From: Candidatus Omnitrophota bacterium
Lineage (GTDB): Bacteria; Omnitrophota; Gorgyraeia; Gygaellales; Profunditerraquicolaceae
Assembly: GCA_025453445.1 (NCBI GenBank)
Contig: JALOQJ010000001.1
Location: 9,155-73,154, forward strand
Direction of reading: 5' to 3'
DNA length: 64,000 nucleotides
Shown here: piece by piece, positions 1 through 59,895 of the stretch
How the letters are laid out: each line of letters begins with the position of its first letter
Position numbering within the stretch: position 1 is the first letter of the stretch
Notes under the pieces: generated by a model
What the model was told of the DNA's origin: nothing
The model's input: the letters and a program-made list of their open reading frames with translations, nothing else
The model's database searches: none
Translations under genes and position numbers: made by a program

Positions 1-432
1 GAAATTTTTGTAATCACAAAGAAAAAATTCACCGCCCCAAAGAGTATTATCTGTGCCCAAGCCCGTGCCGTCAAAAGCTACTCCGATTACTTTTTGATTT
101 TTCAGGCCATTATCAATCATACAAGAAACAATGTGGCTATGGTGATGCTGAGTAGGCAGTAGATAGTAGGTAGTAGGTAGGGATAAAGCGTATTTGGTAG
201 ACTGATATTCCGAGTGTAAGTCATGGGCGATAATTTTAGGATGTTTACGCAGAAAATATTTTACGTCCTTTTCAAAGCTGAAAAAGTCAGCCGGATTGCT
301 TAAATCCGAATGCAGCCCGCTTAAATAAGCAAACTCGCCCCGCAGGAAACAGACGGTATTCTTAGTCTGACTACCAACACTCAAAATTGCCTTTTTCGCC
401 TTAAAGGGTAATTTAATTTTTTTTAGCTGCAT
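1..432 (-). CDS. Carbamoyltransferase Kae1-like domain protein (HypF C-terminal domain-like), partial. The gene starts at ATG 432-430 and its C-terminus lies beyond the window.
   Basis: Manual reverse-strand translation (not in the ORF track because it is truncated by the window edge): MQLKKIKLPFKAKKAILSVGSQTKNTVCFLRGEFAYLSG...IIAHDLHSEYQSTKYA...VQHHHSHIVSCM...VIGVAFDGTGLGTDNTLWGGEFF. This matches the HypF Kae1-like domain signatures KNTFCL, IAHDLHPxYxST, QHHHAH and DGTGxGxDGxxWGGE. Confidence 0.55.
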   Translation of the reverse strand, partial: MQLKKIKLPFKAKKAILSVGSQTKNTVCFLRGEFAYLSGLHSDLSNPADFFSFEKDVKYFLRKHPKIIAHDLHSEYQSTKYALSLPTTYYLLPTQHHHSHIVSCMIDNGLKNQKVIGVAFDGTGLGTDNTLWGGEFFLCDYKNF

Positions 433-1165
433 ATAAAAGCTCACAATATTTCTTGCGCAATAATTGCGTCATTGAACCTGCGCCTCTGCCGATTCGGATT
501 TTATTCACCTTTTTAAGAGGCATTATCCCAATAAGAGAGTTGGTCACAAATGCCTCGTCTGCATCGAATAAATCATAAATGGTAAAATTTCCTTCCTTGA
601 TTTTAATTTTATGCTTTTTAGCCAAATCCGATACTGCCATTCTGGTAATCCCGTTTAAGCAGCCGCATTTTAAAGAAGGAGTAAATAAAACTTTATCTTT
701 TACAAAAAAAACGTTAGTCTTCGAGCCTTCGGCAAGCAGGCCGCGGCTATTGAGTATAATCGCTTCGTCAAACCCCCGGGCCTTTGCCTCATGAAAACTT
801 AATTCATACAAAAGCCGCTCAGTAGTTTTAATCCCAGATAAGGCATTACATTCATCCTTCCAAAAATTAGAAACCAATCCGGAAAAACCTTCTCTGTATT
901 TTTGGGCAGTTAAAGGCTGGTATTTTTTTACTTCCAGCGTTAAACGAGCAGCAATGCTTGATTTCAATAACGTCAATTTGATATATACGTCCTTAAAGCG
1001 CGTATTGCGCAGCGCGGTTTGTATCATTTTTTTTAGCCGCAGCAGGGAATGTGGGTTTTTTATTTTAATCGCCTTAGCAGCACTAGTGATCCTTTTGATG
1101 TGCTCATTCAGATAAACTATCTTTTTATTATGCGCGCGCATCGTCTCAAATATTCCGGACATCAA
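413..1165 (-). CDS. pabC: Aminodeoxychorismate lyase / class IV (branched-chain or D-amino-acid) aminotransferase fold protein
   Basis: 250 aa with a class IV aminotransferase-like C-terminus (EAFVTNSLIGIMPL). Overlaps and is co-directional with pabB. Confidence 0.6.
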   Translation of the reverse strand: MMSGIFETMRAHNKKIVYLNEHIKRITSAAKAIKIKNPHSLLRLKKMIQTALRNTRFKDVYIKLTLLKSSIAARLTLEVKKYQPLTAQKYREGFSGLVSNFWKDECNALSGIKTTERLLYELSFHEAKARGFDEAIILNSRGLLAEGSKTNVFFVKDKVLFTPSLKCGCLNGITRMAVSDLAKKHKIKIKEGNFTIYDLFDADEAFVTNSLIGIMPLKKVNKIRIGRGAGSMTQLLRKKYCELLYAAKKN

Positions 1166-2477
1166 TCGCCTCCTTTATGCCTTTGGCTTTTACTAAAGTC
1201 TCTTCGTATTCCTGCGCAGGATCCGAATCCGCAACAATGCCTGCGCCTACCCAGAAATAAACTTGTTTATTTTTCTTGAGGATCGTGCGAATTAGAATAT
1301 TAAAATCCATATTTCCGGAAAAACTCAAATACCCCAAAGCTCCGGTATAAATCGAGCGCGGCAGAGGCTCCAATTCTTTGATAATTTCCATAGCGCGGAT
1401 TTTTGGGCAGCCGGTAATTGAACCTCCGGGAAAACACGCCTGCAATAAATCAATCCTGTTTTTATCTTTATGCAACCTGCCTTCTACCGTGGCAGTAGTC
1501 TGATACACCGTACTATAAGTTTCTAATGTGCGCGGGGCAGTGACTTTGATGGAATCATATTCGCAGACTTTTCCTAAATCATTTCTTTCCAAATCCACGA
1601 TCATCACCAATTCTGCCTTGTCTTTGGCGCTTTTAAGCAGTTCTTTTTTCAGCCGTGTATCGTGTTTTTTATTTTTGCTGCGCGGCCGGGTGCCTTTCAT
1701 CGGCCGAGTGGTCACTTTATCTTCTGTAACGCTTAAAAATCTTTCCGGAGACGAACTGATTATCTCAAAATCTTCTGAGCTAAAATAAGCGCTGAAAGGC
1801 GCTGGGCTGGTTTTACGCAGGCGCTGATAAATTTGTGCGCCGGATAAATTACTGATGCCCTCAAAACGCTGAGATAAATTAACCTGATAAATATCTCCCT
1901 GACGAATATACTCTTTGGCTCTTTTTACTGCTGCGATATATTCGGCCTTGCCAAAATTTGACCTAAGCCCTACGTTCCCTCGAGAACACTCATTCTGCGG
2001 AGTAATTTTTGTGCTGGCTGAGTCGGATACCTGCTGCAATAATTTCTTAAAATTGGTTTCTGCCAAAGCCTTGCTAAGATGATGTTTTTTCTCCGGAAAA
2101 CCAGAGGCAAAAAGATAAAGTAATTTTTTATGCTGATCAACAATCAGGCAGCTGTTATAAAGCCCAAACCCGCAATCCGGCACAGCTAAGCCGGAATCAT
2201 AAGCTAAATACCCCACTGCCCCTCCTAAAAAAGGCGGGCAATCGCCGGAAAGAGTAATTTTGTATTGCTGCAGCGCCTCTCTGAGTTTTTTAAACTGCTC
2301 ATCGCCTTTGCTTTTTATTTTTAAAAACGGCTCAAATCCCAGAAAGGAATACCTGCCAATACCCTGATCATTCAGGCCTGAGTCAAGAAAGAAACAATCC
2401 TTCTTTTGGCTTAAGCATGCAAAAAGCTGCAAAGGATCGCTTTTTAATTTATATGATTTCAAGATGTAATATGCCAT
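1146..2477 (-). CDS. pabB: Aminodeoxychorismate (or anthranilate) synthase component I
   Basis: 443 aa chorismate-binding enzyme with motifs MVIVDLERNDLGKV and GGSITGCPKIRAMEII. Confidence 0.75.
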   Translation of the reverse strand: MAYYILKSYKLKSDPLQLFACLSQKKDCFFLDSGLNDQGIGRYSFLGFEPFLKIKSKGDEQFKKLREALQQYKITLSGDCPPFLGGAVGYLAYDSGLAVPDCGFGLYNSCLIVDQHKKLLYLFASGFPEKKHHLSKALAETNFKKLLQQVSDSASTKITPQNECSRGNVGLRSNFGKAEYIAAVKRAKEYIRQGDIYQVNLSQRFEGISNLSGAQIYQRLRKTSPAPFSAYFSSEDFEIISSSPERFLSVTEDKVTTRPMKGTRPRSKNKKHDTRLKKELLKSAKDKAELVMIVDLERNDLGKVCEYDSIKVTAPRTLETYSTVYQTTATVEGRLHKDKNRIDLLQACFPGGSITGCPKIRAMEIIKELEPLPRSIYTGALGYLSFSGNMDFNILIRTILKKNKQVYFWVGAGIVADSDPAQEYEETLVKAKGIKEAIDVRNI

Positions 2478-3273
2478 CTATCCTAAAAGTACGCTCCTCA
2501 TTGCGTAAAGAACAAAACCCTACTAAATACAAATTGCGGCCGTTTTCCTGCTTGATCTGGCCGGGAACCACCTCTCTTTCAGATACCTCAGCTCCGGCAG
2601 AAGACAAATACCTGATTTTTAATTTTGCCCGCAAATCAATTGCTTTCTGAATTTGGTTTATTTTTTGCGCATGGATACTATCTAAAAAAAGCGGATCAAT
2701 CGCAAAAAGGCCGGAAAAATTATGAAAATCAATGATCCCTTTTGCCTCTAAGATATCTTTGAGCCGGTAGAATACATCTAAAGTCATCTCTACATCGGAA
2801 AACGCCCTGTGCTCCTGCTGTTGACGGACACCCAACCTATTTGCCACAAACCACAGCGCGTAACGCTGCATACCCGGCAAAAGCCGCTTTGCCATTTTTA
2901 AAATATCTGCAACAACAATGCCTTCCAGCTCGCCCTTACCAAGAAGCTTCAATTCATTGTTCAAGAAACCCATATCAAATCCGGCATTATATGAGCACAA
3001 ACAGCTGCCTTGTATAAAATCCAAGAATTTCGGAATTACTTCTTCCATTTCCGGCGCGTTTTCAAGCATTTCAGGTGTAATATTGTTTACCCTGAATGCT
3101 GCTTCAGAAATCGCACGCTTAGGATTTACTAAACTTTGGAATAAGGCGATTTTCTGCCTGCCTTTGAATCGTATTGCGGCAATTTCCACAATCCGATCCC
3201 CAGCCCTCGGCTCTAAGCCTGTCGTCTCCGTATCAAAAATTACAAATTCAACTTCATTAATGTCTATATTCAT
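2449..3273 (-). CDS. DEDDh 3'-5' exonuclease (DNA polymerase III epsilon-like) with a C-terminal WYL-like domain
   Basis: N-terminal FVIFDTETTGL Exo I motif and YNAGFDMGFL Exo II. The C-terminus LYLVGFCSLRNEERTFRIDGI resembles a WYL-domain core. Confidence 0.7.
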   Translation of the reverse strand: MNIDINEVEFVIFDTETTGLEPRAGDRIVEIAAIRFKGRQKIALFQSLVNPKRAISEAAFRVNNITPEMLENAPEMEEVIPKFLDFIQGSCLCSYNAGFDMGFLNNELKLLGKGELEGIVVADILKMAKRLLPGMQRYALWFVANRLGVRQQQEHRAFSDVEMTLDVFYRLKDILEAKGIIDFHNFSGLFAIDPLFLDSIHAQKINQIQKAIDLRAKLKIRYLSSAGAEVSEREVVPGQIKQENGRNLYLVGFCSLRNEERTFRIDGILHLEII

Positions 3274-3365
3274 TAGTTAAATTTCCTGTTAGATTCCAGC
3301 CTTTTATGCGTCTATTATAGTCAAAAGGAGGTGAAGATTAAAGTATTAATATTAAATAACTTACA

Positions 3366-3396
3366 AACTTGAGGTCACAATTTGTGACCTCAAGTT
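3366..3396. promoter_or_regulatory. Perfect 13-14 bp-arm palindrome (operator-like) located 23 bp upstream of the ORF6N gene
   Basis: AACTTGAGGTCACAA-T-TTGTGACCTCAAGTT, immediately before the SD AAAGGAG and ATG 3419. Confidence 0.4.
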
Positions 3397-3418
3397 ATGG
3401 CAACAAAAGGAGAAAAAT

Positions 3419-3931
3419 ATGAAAGAGCTGGTACCTTTAGAAAAAATTGAACAAAAGATATTTTTCATCAGAAACCAGAAGGTTATGTTAGACAAAGACT
3501 TAGCTGAGTTATTTGGCGTTCCGACAAAACAATTGAATCGCCAAGTAAAACGCAATATTGAACGGTTCCCTCGGGAATTTATGTTCCAACTCACTCGTCA
3601 AGAAAGAGATGAACTGGTGCCAAATTGGCACCAGTTTAAAACAATGAAGCATTCCTCTACTATGCCTTATGCTTTCACAGAACACGGAGTAGCTATGCTT
3701 GCTACTGTTTTGAATAGTGCAAATGCGATAAAAATGAGCATAATTATTATTAAAACTTTTGTCAAATTGCGGGAGATAATTTCGACCCACAAAGAGCTAA
3801 CGCAAAAATTAGAAGCGCTGGAGCGAAAAGTCGATAAGCATGACGTCGAAATTCAGGCAATCTTTGAAGCTATAAAACAACTTGCTATGCCTCCTGAGCC
3901 ACCCAAGCGTTCAATCGGGTTTCATACGTGA
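3419..3931 (+). CDS. ORF6N-domain (KilA-N/antirepressor-like) DNA-binding protein
   Basis: The N-terminus IRNQKVMLDKDLAELFGVPTKQLNRQVKRNIERFPREFMFQLTRQE is the characteristic ORF6N domain signature. The C-terminus is a coiled coil. This is the only plus-strand gene in the left arm. Confidence 0.7.
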   Translation: MKELVPLEKIEQKIFFIRNQKVMLDKDLAELFGVPTKQLNRQVKRNIERFPREFMFQLTRQERDELVPNWHQFKTMKHSSTMPYAFTEHGVAMLATVLNSANAIKMSIIIIKTFVKLREIISTHKELTQKLEALERKVDKHDVEIQAIFEAIKQLAMPPEPPKRSIGFHT

Positions 3932-3961
3932 TTTTTCACGTTCTTTATTATTCCCCGCTCA

Positions 3962-4003
3962 AGCTGTAGGGGAGGTTTAAACCTCCCCTACAGCTGTGGA
4001 TAA
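3962..4003. repeat. GTTTAAAC-centred palindrome (17 bp arms) followed by TGTGGATAA; copy a of a 4-member family. Probable bidirectional terminator between convergent genes.
   Basis: AGCTGTAGGGGAGGTTT|AAACCTCCCCTACAGCT followed by GTGGATAAC. Confidence 0.55.
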
Positions 4004-4032
4004 CTCTACTCCACTAAAAATATAGCCATTTC

Positions 4033-4647
4033 CTACCTTAACTCTTTCATTTTCGGTACAACATTAATGAGATCGCTAGAAGCAGCAAAATTTAGTAATT
4101 TAATTAAATCTGTATCATCGTAATCATCTGGATGATATAGAAAACTCTCCTTAAAGATATTTTTATAAAGTCCGCATAATAAACCAAATAAATATTTTAG
4201 CCCTTCACTTAATTCCCTACCTTTTATATCTGCTTCTTGCCAAATTTTATGGTGATCTAAGATACCATTTTTATCTAAATGAAAGTGTGTTTTGTCACGA
4301 ACGTGTTTTAGTTTCACTGCCAAGCTTTGCAAAGAATATATTTTTTCCTCTGAATAATCCTTTAAATTTTTTAAGACCAGCGTATCGGTTTTTAGGATAT
4401 ACCAAAAAGTAGAAGAATCTCCGCATTTATCAAGCTCGAGCACTTTAATAGCGTGACTTACCATATCGTTAAATAAAGCTTTTTGAGATATAGAAAAGTA
4501 GCTTTCACCATGAACATAGATTTCATTCTCATCGGTATATCGATCCCATGCCGTTAAGGCCTTTAATTCTAATAATGCGTGAGCAAGTTCGAAGAGATTT
4601 CTTTTTATGGCCGTATTATATCTAATACCATTCGCCAAATTTACCAC
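4033..4647 (-). CDS. Hypothetical protein, possibly HEPN-like (carries an Rx4-6H-type motif)
   Basis: 204 aa with no recognisable family. Contains HVRDKTHFH. Convergent with the ORF6N gene. Confidence 0.45.
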   Translation of the reverse strand: MVNLANGIRYNTAIKRNLFELAHALLELKALTAWDRYTDENEIYVHGESYFSISQKALFNDMVSHAIKVLELDKCGDSSTFWYILKTDTLVLKNLKDYSEEKIYSLQSLAVKLKHVRDKTHFHLDKNGILDHHKIWQEADIKGRELSEGLKYLFGLLCGLYKNIFKESFLYHPDDYDDTDLIKLLNFAASSDLINVVPKMKELR

Positions 4648-4689
4648 CTTTTAATTCTTTCCATGTATTAAATGAATCTGGCGCGTTTT

Positions 4690-4900
4690 CGAGCGAATGT
4701 CGATTTTGCCCCGCCTATGGCGGGGCAAAATCGACTCTGAGCGAGAAAATGCGACAGATTCATAGATAGCGTCCGCGCGAGAAACTGAACAAGGCACACG
4801 CAAAACAGTTATGCCTCGGCAGAACCCGCGGTCAATTTAATCGCTGCAAACGTTCCCGCAAAAATACAGACAAGGCACACGCGAAACTGCTATGCCTTTC
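4690..4900. repeat. MITE-like GC-rich repeat, locus A. A 17 bp-stem hairpin at 4699-4735 is followed by tandem R-modules.
   Basis: GTCGATTTTGCCCCGCC-TAT-GGCGGGGCAAAATCGAC. R-modules at 4768-4832 and 4845-4900 are about 85% identical to 63247-63316 and to the reverse complement of 59666-59712. The last module overlaps the final codons of the downstream gene. Confidence 0.6.
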
Positions 4901-5786
4901 TTTTTACAATGAACGCCGGAACAAACTTCACCGGATGATATGATAATTTAACGCGCTTGAGATTTTCCAGTCCTGAATCATCCATGATATTGATATATTT
5001 ATACTCGCTTAGCTCGCGGCAGAATTCGCGGAAGATAAATTGCGCTAAGCCTTTGATGCTTAAGTCGGTAATTTCATAAAGCACGCAGAAGGTATCATCA
5101 TTTAATTTGAATCCAAAAGTAAAACCTTTGAGCTCACCTTCAATTCTCACCAATCTGCCAAGGCAATTGAAATCCTGATAATTGTCGAGCAAAAGGCCTA
5201 AAGTCTTAAAACTGTCCTCGAGCATAAAACGATATGCATCGTCTTTGCTGTTTCCCCTGCGCTGCTCTGCCCATAATTTGTATAACTTAAGACAATCAGC
5301 TTTATCAAGCCTAGTAAACGGCGCGTATGCAAAATGGTAGTGCTTAGTAAAATAATTGAAGCTCGCCCGTTTTGATTTGAATTTATCGCTGCTTAATTCT
5401 GCCAGCTGACGCCTTGAACACAGATAATCCGATGATTTTTGTACACACTCTAGTCCTAAGCCGCGATAAAACTCCAAATCCTTTTCTTCAGCGTTTTCAA
5501 TCCGGGCAAATTCTTTATTGACGTTAAACTTATCTAAAATCTTAAAGCTCTCAGTTACAGCTTCAGAAGATATTTTCTTCCCAAGCGGCGACAGATATAA
5601 AAATGCCCCGATTTTATCCCGGAAAATAATGCAAAGATTGCCTGTAATCTCCAGCCAGCTGATTTCAAAGAGCCCTTTCCAGAGATAAATATTCTCCCAA
5701 GCATAAACCGACAACTCGTGGTTGTCGTAATGAAGATATTTGCTAAATCTTGATTTATCCTTTAAGGATAATTTATTTAATTTCAT
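4890..5786 (-). CDS. DUF2156-like protein (aminoacyl-phosphatidylglycerol synthase C-terminal domain fold)
   Basis: 298 aa with weak recognition of a LPG_synthase_C / GNAT-like fold. Confidence 0.45.
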   Translation of the reverse strand: MKLNKLSLKDKSRFSKYLHYDNHELSVYAWENIYLWKGLFEISWLEITGNLCIIFRDKIGAFLYLSPLGKKISSEAVTESFKILDKFNVNKEFARIENAEEKDLEFYRGLGLECVQKSSDYLCSRRQLAELSSDKFKSKRASFNYFTKHYHFAYAPFTRLDKADCLKLYKLWAEQRRGNSKDDAYRFMLEDSFKTLGLLLDNYQDFNCLGRLVRIEGELKGFTFGFKLNDDTFCVLYEITDLSIKGLAQFIFREFCRELSEYKYINIMDDSGLENLKRVKLSYHPVKFVPAFIVKRKA

Positions 5787-6282
5787 GCGGATCTTGTAAT
5801 TCCACCACGTCGAGGACTTCTTCGTATGCTTGAAGGATCTGCGGGTTGTCTTTTAAAACCTTTAACTGTTGGGGAGAATTTAAAAAGTCGGTTAAATACT
5901 GCACATAATCTTTGAATTCCTGACTGTTTGCTTTCTCAGCGACATATGGACAATTTAAATCAATAGTGAGGAGTATTTTTTTATCCCTGAAGGCAATAAG
6001 AAACGGATAGAGCTGGCATTCAAACGGCCGGGTTGCATAAATTTTACATTTATTATCTTCCAGGTTAAGAAACGGACAAACAAAACTTTTATTTCCTATA
6101 TCGGGAATCGGAATGATTTTTTTTTCTATTGAGATATTCACCGCGGGAATCCCCGGCCGGTCTGCTAATTCCAGCATTTCTTCTTCCAAAAGACAAGGCG
6201 ACCAGGCTGATTCCTGTTTTTGGAATCGGCAGCAGCCACGGCATTCCAAACAAGCACTCTCTGCAACAAACTGCTTGATCAC
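5773..6282 (-). CDS. YkgJ-family CxxCxxCC putative zinc/iron-chelating protein
   Basis: Has the CLECRGCC motif and additional Cys pairs; 169 aa. Confidence 0.6.
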   Translation of the reverse strand: MIKQFVAESACLECRGCCRFQKQESAWSPCLLEEEMLELADRPGIPAVNISIEKKIIPIPDIGNKSFVCPFLNLEDNKCKIYATRPFECQLYPFLIAFRDKKILLTIDLNCPYVAEKANSQEFKDYVQYLTDFLNSPQQLKVLKDNPQILQAYEEVLDVVELQDPHEIK

Positions 6283-6599
6283 TTCACAATGCTCCCAGGT
6301 TTTATTTCCCTTAACGGGCTGATAATCGCAAGCCCTGTTTCATCAGATGCCGCCAAAAGCATACCCTGACTTTCCACTCCGCGCAAAGTTGCCGGCTCCA
6401 AATTATCCACTACAATCACCTGCTTGCCGATTAATTCTTCTTTCTGATAAGCAAGCCTGATTCCTGCAACTAATTGCTTGGTTTTATCACCTAAGTCAAC
6501 TGTCACAATATATAACTTATCAGCATTAGGATGTTCTATAACTTCTTTGATTACAGCAACTTTAAGCTCTATTTTTCTGAAATCTTCAATGGTAATCAT
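6279..6599 (-). CDS. tRNA-binding domain protein (CsaA/Trbp111/MetRS C-terminal domain-like)
   Basis: 106 aa OB-fold protein. DLRVGKI-like motif (FRKIELKVAVIKEVIEHPNADKLYI) and ESQGMLLA. Confidence 0.7.
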   Translation of the reverse strand: MITIEDFRKIELKVAVIKEVIEHPNADKLYIVTVDLGDKTKQLVAGIRLAYQKEELIGKQVIVVDNLEPATLRGVESQGMLLAASDETGLAIISPLREIKPGSIVK

Positions 6600-6663
6600 G
6601 CGTATTTCCTCCTTATTATTATAATAATTATGATAACACGCTGGCAGCTAAAATACAAGGCGA

Positions 6664-6696
6664 AATAAAGAGGGACGGCTCAAAAGAACCGTCCCT
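6664..6696 (-). terminator. Rho-independent terminator downstream of the minus-strand tRNA pair
   Basis: 8 bp GC stem AGGGACGG/CCGTCCCT. On the minus strand it is followed by CTTTATTTCG. Confidence 0.5.
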
Positions 6697-6784
6697 TTAC
6701 GATATACGCTTGCTCCTCGCCTCTACCCTACAAATAATCGTAGGCTCGGAGTTAATTTCTGACCATAAAATAGCGGGAAATTAA

Positions 6785-6860
6785 CGGGGCCGACGAGATT
6801 TGAACTCGCGATCTTCGCCGTGACAGGGCGACGTGTTAGACCGGGCTACACCACGACCCC
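6785..6860 (-). tRNA. tRNA-Asp (anticodon GTC)
   Basis: Manual cloverleaf: acceptor GGGGUCG/CGGCCCC, anticodon loop CUGUCAC, T-loop UUCAAAU. Confidence 0.9.
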
Positions 6861-6914
6861 AAACATAAGGTGCTAATTGTAGACTAAATTCCTGCCTTTT
6901 GCAACAGATATTTA

Positions 6915-6991
6915 TGGTGGGCGGTAGAGGACTTGAACCCCTGACCTTCTGAATGTAAATCAGACGTTCTAACCAGCTGAACTAACCGCCC
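6915..6991 (-). tRNA. tRNA-Val (anticodon TAC), CCA encoded
   Basis: Manual cloverleaf: acceptor GGGCGGU/ACCGCCC, anticodon loop UUUACAU, 3' ACCA. Confidence 0.9.
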
Positions 6992-6997
6992 GAAAAA

Positions 6998-7438
6998 TTA
7001 AAACTTTCCCAACAACCCTAGGGTAAACGCCATCACAAAAAGTGCTACGGTTTCAATAATACCGATAACAACTATATAGTTACCAAAACCTTTCCCGGTT
7101 TCACCCATAGCATCGCAGGCACAGGCAGCAGCCTTGCCCTGCCAATAAGCGGATATCCCCATAGCTAAACCGGCAAAAGCGCCGATTCCCCATAAATATA
7201 AGCCTTTGTTGACGATTTCCATCATCCGGTTCATAACAATCATTCCGTAAACCGTCTGAGTCAACGGTGCACCGACAAAAGCCACTAACATAAAAGAGGC
7301 CGGCTTGTTTTGAATAAAATTTTTCTTCCATGCGCCAATAGCAGCCATTCCTGCCACACCGGCACCCGCGCCTGAACCTACTGCAGAAAGCGCCATCGCC
7401 ATAATTGCCCCTAAATCCTTTAATTGATCCAACATACT
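6998..7438 (-). CDS. atpK: V-type ATP synthase subunit K (proteolipid)
   Basis: Gly/Ala-rich TM hairpins. Start assigned to the internal Met, which is preceded by GGAGG. Confidence 0.8.
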   Translation of the reverse strand, partial: SMLDQLKDLGAIMAMALSAVGSGAGAGVAGMAAIGAWKKNFIQNKPASFMLVAFVGAPLTQTVYGMIVMNRMMEIVNKGLYLWGIGAFAGLAMGISAYWQGKAAACACDAMGETGKGFGNYIVVIGIIETVALFVMAFTLGLLGKF

Positions 7439-7446
7439 ATTCCTCC

Positions 7447-9219
7447 TTAATCTTTTTTCAACGGCTGATAAGGCCTTCCACTCCAAGACACGCTGGCATG
7501 GCCGCTGAATTCCAAAACATTAAGCCTAATACCGTGTACTATTACAGACATCGGGCCAAGGACAAGGTTCAAAGCATGGCCCATTATAATTATAATCGCG
7601 CTTAAAATCAAAGCGAAAAAACTTCCCCTCCCAACATTGCCTGCCATGGCATTGAATGTATCGGCGATCGCCACACCTGCCAAGCCTACGGCAAAAAGGC
7701 GCACGTAAGAAACTACGTCGGTAAAATTGTTCATTAGGCTCAGAGCTACTGTTCCTAAGCCGCTGCCGATACATTTCAAAATATTTTTTTGCGGATTACT
7801 AAATAGAACTACTAAGGCGATACTAATACTCACCATCAATATTCCGAAACCCGGGAAGATATCGCCTAAAATCAGCGTATTCGCCAGAAAAAATGCTGTC
7901 CAAAGTACCCCAATCCAGCCAAAATCTGCCAACGCGGTCAAGGAAGGTAATTTAACTGCGATGCGCCAGGAATGTGCAATGGTTAATTGCAGCGCCCCGA
8001 GAAAAAAACAAAAACGCTGGGCGATTTGAGCATTGTTTAAACCCGGCAGGAGCGGCTTTAAACCTGAATGCATCAGCCAAGCTTGCCCGAAAAATGTTCC
8101 GGTCAACAACCCCCATATAATAGCGCAAAAACTTAAGAGATAAAAGAGAAAAAATGCTGACTTATCGCGGATTTTTTTGCCTAATTTTTTATGCAACCAA
8201 AAGGTGAGAATAAAATACACTGCGCCATAACCGGCATCACCGATTAACATACCGAAAAAAAGGCTTAAGAATATTAAAAATACCGGACTGATATCCAATT
8301 CATGATAACCGGGAACAATCTCCAACAGCTTAAAAACCGGTTGCATCAACCGGAAAAAACGGCCGCTACGCAACAAAACAGGCACATCCTCATCGTCGGA
8401 AGGCTCACTGATTACAATACCCCATTGTTTAATCTTAGCCTGAGAGAATAATTTATCAACAGCATCAAACGGAATATAGCCGGTTACATAGGAAAGCGTA
8501 CCTGTGCTGCCCATACCGGCAATCGCTTGCAGGAATTCGATTTCTTTCTCCAATCTTTTCCGTTCTCTGAGAAACGCCGCGGCCAAACGTAAATTACGGT
8601 CAATATCATACCCCAATTCTTTGATAACTCTTTCTTCCTCCACAAGCCTCAAGCGCATTGCTAAGAGGCCTTGTTTAGGCAATACTATTTCTTTGAACGG
8701 GCAATCAAATTTAGCAAGCGAAACAACTACGCAATAGCCGAATCCTGAGCGCGTGAAAAGCGGGCTTACAAAAACTCCTTGCGGAAAATCTTTTATTTGG
8801 CGCAAAGGTACATGATATAACCTAAGGTATACGCCTTTTTCTGCCAACTGGAGTATTTTTTCAGGCGAAAAATCCCCCCAAGCCTCCCAATCGCTGATTT
8901 GCTGCCGGAGATTCCGGGCAAAGGATTCTAGTTGATCGCGCCTTTTCGCCAAATCAATAATGTGCCGGGCCTTTAGTTTCCATCCATCGGGAATTTCCGG
9001 CTCCTGCATGGCCTTTTTTTTATTTTCTGCAGCCTGAGAAATAATTGCCAGGCAATTATCCAAAAGGGTTAAATTATCCCGCAGGACATTTATATCCTGG
9101 CTCTGTGCCGGATTTTGATGTTCGATATGTAAAAAACCTAAAGCGCGTAACTCATCCAATGCGCTCCAGCTGTCTTTCTGCTGGATAATTACCGTTGCTT
9201 TTTTCATCGGGACAATCAT
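7447..9219 (-). CDS. atpI: V-type ATP synthase subunit I
   Basis: 590 aa with an N-terminal cytoplasmic domain plus a multi-TM C-terminus. Operon context. Confidence 0.85.
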   Translation of the reverse strand: MIVPMKKATVIIQQKDSWSALDELRALGFLHIEHQNPAQSQDINVLRDNLTLLDNCLAIISQAAENKKKAMQEPEIPDGWKLKARHIIDLAKRRDQLESFARNLRQQISDWEAWGDFSPEKILQLAEKGVYLRLYHVPLRQIKDFPQGVFVSPLFTRSGFGYCVVVSLAKFDCPFKEIVLPKQGLLAMRLRLVEEERVIKELGYDIDRNLRLAAAFLRERKRLEKEIEFLQAIAGMGSTGTLSYVTGYIPFDAVDKLFSQAKIKQWGIVISEPSDDEDVPVLLRSGRFFRLMQPVFKLLEIVPGYHELDISPVFLIFLSLFFGMLIGDAGYGAVYFILTFWLHKKLGKKIRDKSAFFLFYLLSFCAIIWGLLTGTFFGQAWLMHSGLKPLLPGLNNAQIAQRFCFFLGALQLTIAHSWRIAVKLPSLTALADFGWIGVLWTAFFLANTLILGDIFPGFGILMVSISIALVVLFSNPQKNILKCIGSGLGTVALSLMNNFTDVVSYVRLFAVGLAGVAIADTFNAMAGNVGRGSFFALILSAIIIIMGHALNLVLGPMSVIVHGIRLNVLEFSGHASVSWSGRPYQPLKKD

Positions 9220-9840: not shown

Positions 9841-9878
9841 GTGGGGCGGGTTTAAACCCGCCCCACCTCTGTGTATAA
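9841..9878. repeat. GTTTAAAC-centred palindrome followed by TGTGTATAA (copy b)
   Basis: GTGGGGCGGGTTT|AAACCCGCCCCAC followed by CTCTGTGTATAAT. Confidence 0.5.
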
Positions 9879-23346: not shown

Positions 23347-23386
23347 TTATCCACATAGTAGGGGACGTTTAAACGTCCCCTACTAT
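23347..23386. repeat. TTATCCACA followed by a GTTTAAAC-centred palindrome (copy c, inverted orientation), abutting the tRNA-Arg 3' end
   Basis: TTATCCACA then ATAGTAGGGGACGTTT|AAACGTCCCCTACTAT. Confidence 0.5.
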
Positions 23387-23388
23387 TA

Positions 23389-23463
23389 TGGTGCGCCTGA
23401 CAGGAGTCGAACCTGTACCAACAGCTTCGGAGGCTGATGCCCTATCCATTGGGCCACAGGCGC
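23389..23463 (-). tRNA. tRNA-Arg (anticodon CCG), CCA encoded
   Basis: Acceptor GCGCCUG/CAGGCGC, anticodon loop CUCCGAA, T-arm ACAGG-UUCGACU-CCUGU. Confidence 0.9.
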
Positions 23464-58132: not shown

Positions 58133-58320
58133 TAAAGAGACAGTTATTTGATATAAATTCCCTGCAGTGCCCGTTAGGAAATAGATGATTGGTGATCCAA
58201 CACCAAAATCAAGGGGGTCACATGCTTCTTTAGCGCTTCGGCTCTAGAGAGACGACTCCCACCTGAATCCAAGTAGGTTCAGCCAATCATGTCCAACGGC
58301 ACAGGCGGGGATTTTTTTTA
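58133..58320 (+). ncRNA. ssrS: Structured small RNA, candidate 6S RNA (SsrS)
   Basis: About 180 nt between the promoter and a GGCGGGG+U8 terminator. The ends pair (CCCUGC.../...GCGGGG, AUGAUUGG/CCAAUCAU). The 3' side of a central bubble carries the internal hairpin CACCUGAAUCCAAGUAGGUUCAG, which resembles the E. coli 6S CACCUUGAACCAAGGGUUCAAGG. The 5' bubble strand is A/C-rich and unpaired. The apical stem is capped by a UUCG loop. Confidence 0.45.
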
Positions 58321-59657: not shown

Positions 59658-59895
59658 CAGTTCCGCGTGTGTCTTGTCTGTATTTTTGCGGGAACGTTTG
59701 CCCCGCCCCAGCGTGGCGGGGCTGCACTTCGTTCCAGCCCCTCGCTCTCTCGCAGCCGGGCCCTGAATAAAATCGTTTTTAATAATTTGGAGCCGGCTGC
59801 TCGAACCGTGCCCGCTCGGGGCTTTCAAGATCCCGCAAAAACACAGCCAAGCCACCCGCTAAAACTCTCCTGCTCGCAACAGCCACTCGCTCAAA
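59658..59895. repeat. MITE-like GC-rich repeat, locus B (inverted relative to locus C), with internal subterminal inverted repeats
   Basis: The reverse complement aligns across about 180 bp with 63120-63300. TIR-like TGTCTGTATTTTTGCGGGA (59677-) and TCCCGCAAAAACACAG (-59851). Hairpin GCCCCGCC-N7-GGCGGGGC. Confidence 0.6.

Follow-up and report, generated by a model that had tools for sequence, protein, structure and literature searches.

The window, that is, the whole 64,000-nucleotide stretch analyzed here (contig JALOQJ010000001.1 of a Candidatus Omnitrophota bacterium), carries a small islet at positions 3274-4889 in which two genes converge: one encodes an ORF6N-domain protein, and the other a stand-alone protein of 204 amino acids (aa) that is assigned to the HEPN_AbiU2 family through its homologues. 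Palindromes and repeats lie in and between these genes (Table 1). An earlier note, made from the sequence alone, had described the locus as an accessory islet between core genes whose two members might form a toxin or abortive-infection module. All features listed in that note are present at or close to the positions given there, with a few corrections of detail. The comparisons reported below support the islet, separate its two genes, and draw attention to a palindrome that lies within ORF6N genes and whose arms co-vary across the family.

The 1,616 bp of the islet separate exoWYL, which encodes an RNase_T-WYL exonuclease, from a DUF2156 gene and constitute a lineage-specific insertion. Scanning the DUF2156 protein against one genome per species yielded seven Omnitrophota loci, six of which (L013-L018) were long enough to judge, and in all six the distance from the DUF2156 stop codon to the exonuclease start is 1-201 bp. 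The order of the surrounding genes (tRNA-binding protein, CxxCxxCC, DUF2156, exoWYL, pabB, and an ilvE-like gene) is kept in these relatives, and neither ORF6N nor the 204-aa protein is encoded in the DUF2156-exonuclease loci searched among them. The GC content is 30-34% across the HEPN gene, versus 39-44% in the flanks. The earlier note was also right that ORF6N is the sole plus-strand gene of the left arm, as the minus strand holds every other long open reading frame (ORF) in 1-9000. The phage or integrative and conjugative element setting with which it associated ORF6N proteins is absent, because the flanks consist of housekeeping genes with conserved synteny; the repressor, integrase, or structural genes of a prophage antirepressor module were likewise not found at the islet. 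As a side observation, the exonuclease also matches the PADLOC models DEDDh, WYL, and PDC-S48, yet it behaves as a core gene.

A close relative of the locus is available in L051, a 5-kb metagenome contig that is collinear with window positions 427-3927 at 81% nucleotide identity (93% protein identity for exoWYL). It has an ORF6N gene where the window has one, together with the same leader palindrome, which indicates that the ORF6N insertion is older than the split between the two genomes. Homology ends at the ORF6N stop codon, beyond which L051 carries repeats resembling repetitive extragenic palindromic (REP) elements and, in the position of the HEPN gene, another minus-strand ORF, 229 aa or longer (3940-4648), with no match in Pfam or PADLOC. 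The cargo at this position therefore differs between the two genomes in the manner of a variable hot spot, here one that splits a conserved gene pair; this view is part of the overall explanation that we favor below. Identity between the two is mosaic, amounting to ~92% in the leader, ~55-60% in the ORF6N domain, and ~93% in the C-terminal third of the protein. The ORF6N gene of L051 (3001-3509) appears to be frameshifted into ORFs of 65 and 115 aa, with an N-terminal domain of only ~40% identity.

Table 1. Features of the islet and its flanks (positions in the window unless a contig is named) and related copies in viral contigs
Feature	Position	Strand	Remarks
RNase_T (DEDDh) exonuclease + WYL fusion, 274 aa	2449..3273	-	Left-flank core gene; Pfam RNase_T 6e-39, WYL 4e-14; adjoins DUF2156 in 6/6 relatives
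Promoter-like box TTAGAT-N18-TATTATAGT	3289..3321	+	Common to other ORF6N loci; putative promoter
Leader palindrome AACTTGAGGTCACAA-t-TTGTGACCTCAAGTT	3366..3396		Perfect, 15-bp arms, 1-nt center; 22 nt before ORF6N start; DNA hairpin dG -14.9 kcal/mol, z = -7.9
ORF6N-domain protein, 170 aa	3419..3931	+	Pfam ORF6N; N-terminal winged-helix/KilA-N-like domain and long C-terminal helix
Intragenic palindrome TGAACTGGTGCCAA-a-TTGGCACCAGTTTA	3610..3638		Inside ORF6N; codes ELVPNWHQF (residues 64-73); dG -12.6, z = -6.0
Small hairpin with T-rich tail	3926..3941	+	Across ORF6N stop codon; possible ORF6N terminator (terminator scan, consensus match only)
Palindrome AGCTGTAGGGGAGGTTT directly followed by AAACCTCCCCTACAGCT	3962..3995		Perfect, 17-bp arms, no spacer; between the convergent genes; dG -18, z = -8.4
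Stand-alone HEPN_AbiU2-family protein, 204 aa	4033..4647	-	GTG start; R117-x5-H123
Nested inverted repeat	4672..4763		Inner arms 17/17 (100%), outer arms 17/19 (89%); dG -40.3, z = -11; upstream of HEPN gene
Two 47-nt direct repeats	4770..4897	+	4770-4816 and 4851-4897; dispersed intergenic repeat family
DUF2156 / LPG_synthase_C, 298 aa	4890..5786	-	Right-flank core gene; Pfam 8e-28; synteny kept
Solo 25-nt copies of the ORF6N palindrome	L080 3142; L085 10889; L086 3999; L092 7681; L094 71; L097 2530		IMG/VR contigs

The plus-strand gene is indeed an ORF6N gene, as had been proposed, since its product covers the Pfam ORF6N model (PF10543) in full, scoring 113.4 bits against a cut-off of 27.8 (residues 12-97 on model positions 1-86 of 86). 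It also matches the PADLOC PDC-S05 model PDLC04856 over nearly its whole length (2e-59; residues 2-160 on positions 2-166 of 177) as well as "anti-repressor" PHROGs, and its fold matches are winged-helix/APSES-type DNA-binding domains. More than 7,900 homologues were found, with identities of ~70% across Omnitrophota, WOR-3, Nitrospirota, and Deltaproteobacteria, and relatives occur in phage and plasmid records; those in the phage collections are only distant (36-42% identical). Viral-contig scans gave one distant locus with an ORF6N alignment and no match with the single ORF6N protein. Homologues stand alone or in tandem amid housekeeping genes, for example, between a gene for a giant protein and LigT, between CinA and RecA, or at an exosortase locus, and the contexts examined hold no conserved partner gene, as befits a single-gene PDC-S05 system. 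A different neighborhood is seen in L035 (418-5075), where a 448-aa ORF is bracketed by two ORF6N genes together with an ORF6N remnant truncated at its 5' end (2660-2881), and a 466-aa ORF follows all of them; judged by eye, the 448-aa and 466-aa ORFs resemble an AlbA_2/ATPase-type regulator and a DNA methyltransferase, in what looks like a restriction-modification (R-M) neighborhood. An antisense promoter-like site at 3765-3737 within the window gene seems unconserved among the homologues read.

The intragenic palindrome is a family-wide property. It was found at the same codon position (residues ~64-73) in all 42 distinct ORF6N genes compared, which are 40-73% identical as proteins, with 10-18 matched arm pairs, and shuffling of synonymous codons attains a comparable palindrome score in 1% of cases. 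Covariation was computed on 39 distinct 35-mers: 90.6% of cells are paired, versus 62% with shuffled partners (none of 500 shuffles equaled the observed value) and 30-41% with slid partners, and both sides have changed in 11 of 15 pairs (168 cells against 57 expected); the covariation score is 0.66 compared with 0.17 in shuffles. No variation is seen at the core C15 A16 / T20 G21 or at A24, and hardly any at T12, A17, and T19, giving the pattern T-N2-CAA-N-TTG-N2-A. The encoded peptide varies with the arms (RSQFVT, MFQFGT, ISQIVI, VPNWHQ), and the reading frame used across the palindrome differs between two classes of ORF6N gene; in the window gene it yields ELVPNWHQF, and the other frame of the same DNA gives NWCQIGTS, which resembles the class-B motif NLRCQFGTS. 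This use of two reading frames argues that the symmetry is selected on the nucleic acid and not on the protein. In the structural model of the protein, residues 64-73 form the least-confident insert, between the strands at 55-57 and 84-86.

The same palindrome is present in plasmid ORF6N genes of Segatella hominis, Legionella pneumophila, Bacteroides finegoldii, and Sulfuricurvum kujiense, in weaker form in Butyrivibrio, and in the ORF6N gene of an IMG/VR contig. Among viral contigs, 22 contain an exact 25-nt version, TTGAGGTCRCAANTTGYGACCTCAA; we estimate that chance would produce far fewer than one copy in any collection smaller than 10^12 bases. In 13 of these contigs the copy lies inside an ORF6N gene at the usual position, and in three it lies outside the ORF6N gene of the same locus, as in L095, where it precedes the ORF6N start by ~45 nt. 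In the remaining six contigs the copy is solo and intergenic, and the stretch examined contains no ORF6N gene; the one in L085 lies ~20 nt upstream of where an unrelated gene starts. No description of a unit of this kind, consisting of a protein and a cis element, was found in the literature searched on ORF6N, or in that on KilA-N, palindrome, and antirepressor.

A second copy of this type of palindrome precedes the window gene. The earlier note had recorded a perfect palindrome here, and this stands, except that its arms measure 15 rather than 13 bp; its designation as an operator is plausible, but the element copies a type of palindrome that is found family-wide within ORF6N coding sequences. 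The ORF6N gene of L039 contains an internal palindrome that agrees with the window leader palindrome at all 31 nt, L050 has identical arms around a different center base, and L051 has the same palindrome at the matching leader position with 30 of 31 nt identical. At many ORF6N loci of the metagenome scan, leader palindromes with a CAA-N-TTG center lie 5-62 nt before the ORF6N start. Further upstream, near-identical promoter-like boxes of the form ..GTTAGATT..N..CGTCTATTA(T/A)(A/G)GT.. precede ORF6N in L026, L027, L028, L029, L039, and L051, and a sigma-70 scan did not list the box of the window.

The leader has a further peculiarity in that a 22-nt direct repeat with 77% identity (3322-3343, CAAAAGGAGGTGAAGATTAAAG, versus 3404-3425, CAAAAGGAGAAAAATATGAAAG) doubles the Shine-Dalgarno and start region of ORF6N. 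The two copies flank the leader palindrome on both sides, which hints that the leader may have been built by partial duplication. It is also possible that the leader palindrome is the fossil of a disrupted older ORF6N gene, as it reads LTNLRSQFVTSSYGNKRRKI in one frame; no N-terminal remnant is present upstream, however, and the same arrangement recurs at unrelated loci. In L047 (1519-2785), four palindromes of the ORF6N type occur within 1.5 kb upstream of ORF6N around two small ORFs (118 and 103 aa), in what looks like an array of cassettes with palindromes between them.

Since the leader copy lies downstream of the promoter-like -10 box and upstream of the Shine-Dalgarno sequence, it would be transcribed, which raises the question of whether the palindromes act as RNA hairpins in ORF6N mRNA, for example, as a stabilizer in the 5' untranslated region, a site for RNase III, or a pause in translation. 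Their hairpins are stable, and in the class-B genes read, a run of G-rich glycine codons (W/Y/R-G-G) usually comes after the internal copy; three genes have TGGGGAGG here, which resembles a Shine-Dalgarno sequence, so that the combination of a palindrome and such a stretch recurs in leader and gene. However, 94% of pairs are strictly Watson-Crick without a clear excess of G:U, and the inner 13 pairs include 30 mismatched cells (10 G:T, 5 A:C, and 15 of other types), which show no clear wobble signature. Moreover, no Rfam family is matched, and the solo phage copies lie in either orientation relative to their neighbor genes. A role as RNA seems quite improbable to us.

The same pairing statistics, with symmetry co-varying over the whole 13-15 bp arm, would suit structural DNA hairpins or cruciforms that serve the recombination or mobility of ORF6N cassettes, either as the point of insertion or as a site at which gene halves are exchanged. 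Several features of the family point in this direction. In L023 (CinA-ORF6N-RecA; 6317-7091), compared with L020 (CinA-RecA; 6410-6606), the insert extends exactly from a palindrome, GTCACAAgTTGTGAC, to the stop codon of ORF6N, and both loci have a half-site-like CACAAATTG on their right flank. The mosaicism of leader, ORF6N domain, and C-terminal third between the window and L051 would fit such exchange, as would the identity of the L044 leader palindrome with the internal palindrome of L035, including the same two mismatches; in addition, the truncated ORF6N remnant in L035 begins at the palindrome, and the genes of L037 and L023 contain tandem palindromes. On the other hand, the ORF6N contexts examined lack genes for a recombinase, a transposase, or HUH/Rep, and the comparison of filled and empty sites rests on one pair, in which the "empty" site of L020 could be a deletion scar, because the promoter-like box is present there too. 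The solo intergenic copies in phages, located just upstream of unrelated genes, look regulatory. Overall, we regard a mobility function as unlikely, although it is the main rival to the reading that we favor. A reading of the palindromes as integron attC sites was tried and rejected: by eye, there is no fit to the R''/R' core sequences, and the palindromes are perfect and unaccompanied by an integrase.

The minus-strand gene of the islet encodes the second protein, for which an alternative start exists at a TTG in codon 4, behind GGTGG. The earlier note had pointed to an RDKTHFH motif of the Rx4-6H type, and this motif is confirmed; it occupies residues 117-123 in a VRDKTHFH(I/L)D block found to be invariant across 15 homologues. 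R117, H123, and D125 are each conserved in at least 90% of 99 sequences, so that the HEPN signature appears as R-x5-H. The profile searches that it had called for gave a divided answer. Scanned directly, the protein has no match in Pfam, NCBIfam, PADLOC, or PHROG, and none to HEPN_AbiU2 (PF18734) at E <= 1. Its homologues do match: P0005 (58% identical, 31.9 bits) and P0008 (42%, 32.5 bits) pass the PF18734 cut-off of 26.8 over approximately positions 22-188 of the 193 in the model, and 70 of the 99 relatives match at E <= 0.01, with a best value of 8.5e-13. A word-indexed search recovered 14 homologues, and an exhaustive profile search recovered 427 clusters at E <= 1e-3, nearly all of them stand-alone proteins of ~180-200 aa. 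The AlphaFold model (predicted local distance difference test score of 86) is all-helical and HEPN-like. Sequence searches of the PDB with the single protein and with the 99-sequence profile returned noise only, and a viral-contig scan with the HEPN alignment gave no match. Judged through its homologues, the protein is a member of the HEPN_AbiU2 family and belongs to a divergent stand-alone branch. AbiU2 has been described as a HEPN family that keeps the Rx4-6H motif, for which an RNase action in abortive infection was predicted (Anantharaman et al., 2013; PMC3710099).

The earlier note had likened the pairing of ORF6N with a possible HEPN protein to abortive-infection or toxin modules; on this reading, the two genes would form one toxin/antitoxin or abortive-infection module in which ORF6N controls the HEPN toxin. 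The two genes are adjacent and convergent, and both families are enriched among defense or mobile genes. However, none of eight contexts of HEPN homologues contains ORF6N, tblastn detected the HEPN gene in none of ~50 ORF6N loci, and L051 carries ORF6N without the HEPN gene. The eight HEPN settings are diverse: between GroEL and other genes, beside MazE or BrnT/BrnA pairs, between an aminotransferase and SHMT, on a plasmid-like contig with ParA/NikA, and beside NUDIX. An operon of the two is ruled out because their transcription is convergent, and the HEPN family consists almost wholly of the stand-alone proteins described above. A HEPN-MNT or other type II toxin-antitoxin arrangement was likewise not found, as the neighbors are the convergent ORF6N gene and repeats and the homologue contexts have no common partner. 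We consequently give the idea of a joint module almost no credence; ORF6N and the HEPN gene are two independent single-gene cassettes without linkage.

The window contains eight palindromes with at least 11 matched arm pairs, four of them within the 1.6-kb islet, which is more than expected by chance, and all four fold as DNA hairpins well beyond shuffled sequence (z -6 to -11). The 17-bp palindrome between the convergent genes had been called a terminator; the palindrome is present, but it has no T-run on either strand, is not listed by the terminator scan, and belongs to a small family of palindromes of the form GGGG..GTTTAAAC..CCCC. Similar copies lie at 9841-9866 and 23355-23386 and another is upstream of the ORF6N gene of L052, and the palindrome is absent in L051. 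These elements may be a phylum-typical terminator or REP element. A tRNA gene (23392-23463) lies just next to the copy at 23355-23386.

Upstream of the HEPN gene, the nested inverted repeat and the direct repeats constitute a locus that the earlier note had termed "MITE-like" (miniature inverted-repeat transposable element). The repeats are real, but they seem better described as genome-specific REP-like intergenic repeats. The locus (4672-4897) contains nested inverted repeats, only partial copies of it occur elsewhere in the window (63254-63315, 90%; 59658-59701, 95%, inverted), for a total of three loci in 64 kb, and no target-site duplication was identified. Pieces of this locus also occur in L051. 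The closest HEPN homologue, L077, shares ~60 nt of the nested repeat upstream of its gene, and the repeat therefore probably carries the HEPN promoter. An Rfam scan of 3200-5000 produced nothing real, as the miRNA-like matches merely reflect the hairpins; elsewhere in the window, Rfam identifies a 6S RNA gene (61.9 bits; 58156-58315) and seven tRNA genes (6785-6991 and others), which are unrelated to the islet.

Taken together, these observations would be accommodated by an islet of two independent cassettes that were acquired separately, alongside genome-specific REP-like repeats, and we consider this reading fairly probable as a whole. In the first cassette, the promoter-like box and the leader palindrome would drive and control the ORF6N gene, whose PDC-S05 product is predicted to be a dimeric winged-helix (KilA-N/APSES-like) protein. 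This protein would recognize the T-N2-CAA-N-TTG-N2-A palindrome as its cognate site and regulate its own gene through the leader copy and the internal copy, and, as a defense protein, it could occupy the same palindromes in incoming phage DNA. The second cassette would supply a stand-alone HEPN_AbiU2 protein, putatively a phage-triggered RNase that aborts infection. The insertion, both family assignments, the absence of linkage between the two genes, and the co-varying palindrome of the family are shown by the sequences, from which binding of the palindrome, RNase activity, and a role in defense are predicted. As far as the sequences can tell, the palindrome is most likely either a binding site of ORF6N or a DNA hairpin.

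Several points weigh against this explanation. A leader copy is present in only about a quarter of ORF6N loci, and the leader and internal copies of the window differ at +/-4-5 (GGTCACAA versus GGTGCCAA). The leader palindrome is nearly the same in the window and L051 (30 of 31 nt), while the ORF6N domains of the two have only about 40-65% identity. The symmetry co-varies to +/-13-15 bp, which is wider than a winged-helix dimer needs; a simple operator accounts for such width less well than a base-paired hairpin or cruciform does. The HEPN protein of the window itself fails the PF18734 gathering score. With respect to defense, support comes from a PDC-S05 representative that is reported to reduce plating of T7 and T5 ~1000-fold in E. 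coli (bioRxiv 10.1101/2024.09.26.614923); this protein, the only one of the family with a reported phenotype, has, however, a Virulence_RhuM domain that the window protein, consisting of ORF6N and a coiled coil only, does not possess.

A more general proposition may also be put forward, although we hold it tentatively and with slightly more doubt than belief: an obligatory, co-varying palindrome that has arms of 13-15 bp and survives in different frames, using codons of a permissive loop in the DNA-binding domain, would be embedded in ORF6N genes of at least five bacterial phyla and of phages, with solo copies in leaders and in intergenic phage DNA, and either the protein binds its own coding DNA and phage sites or the hairpin drives the mobility of the cassette.

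Systems that are already known provide useful comparisons. The window HEPN protein resembles HEPN_AbiU2 (PF18734) and AbiU of Lactococcus lactis in its predicted all-helical HEPN-like fold, in its R-x5-H motif, and in its variable, defense-type setting; close homologues pass the PF18734 cut-off across nearly the full model, and the window protein has diverged too far to match directly. Unlike AbiU2, which in lactococci is encoded beside AbiU1, it is a stand-alone protein of ~200 aa without a conserved partner. Sel1-repeat and R-M operon contexts have been reported for AbiU2 (Anantharaman et al., 2013; PMC3710099), and none was seen in the present case.

The ORF6N protein is similar to PDC-S05 of PADLOC in being a near full-length model match and a single gene placed in variable spots, and as far as we found in the literature, no mechanism has been described for that family. 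It shares the ORF6N domain and palindromic sites near gene starts with phage antirepressor, Rha, and KilA-N regulators (PHROG 4792 and relatives), and unlike phage antirepressors it has neither a prophage context nor a repressor partner. Cis-acting sites are known within the genes of the proteins that use them, as with ori-lambda in gene O and pac in the small-terminase gene. By analogy only, the ORF6N palindrome is likewise a symmetric element in a permissive coding segment, although nothing points to a role in replication or packaging, unlike the case for those sites. With REP elements and their associated tyrosine transposases (REP/RAYT) or MITE-type repeats, the islet has in common its stable nested hairpins, the dispersed partial intergenic copies, and a GTAG-containing palindrome at 3962-3995; in contrast to these, it has no RAYT or other transposase, no identified target-site duplications, and few loci in the window.

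Overall, the islet is an ordinary small defense hot spot of a poorly studied phylum, and it adds to the HEPN_AbiU2 family a divergent stand-alone branch of ~430 clusters. The frame-independent palindrome in each ORF6N gene examined provides a concrete and testable cis-acting partner for the abundant candidate defense family PDC-S05. If ORF6N does bind its own coding DNA and the same sites in phage genomes, this would give a mechanism for PDC-S05 defense.

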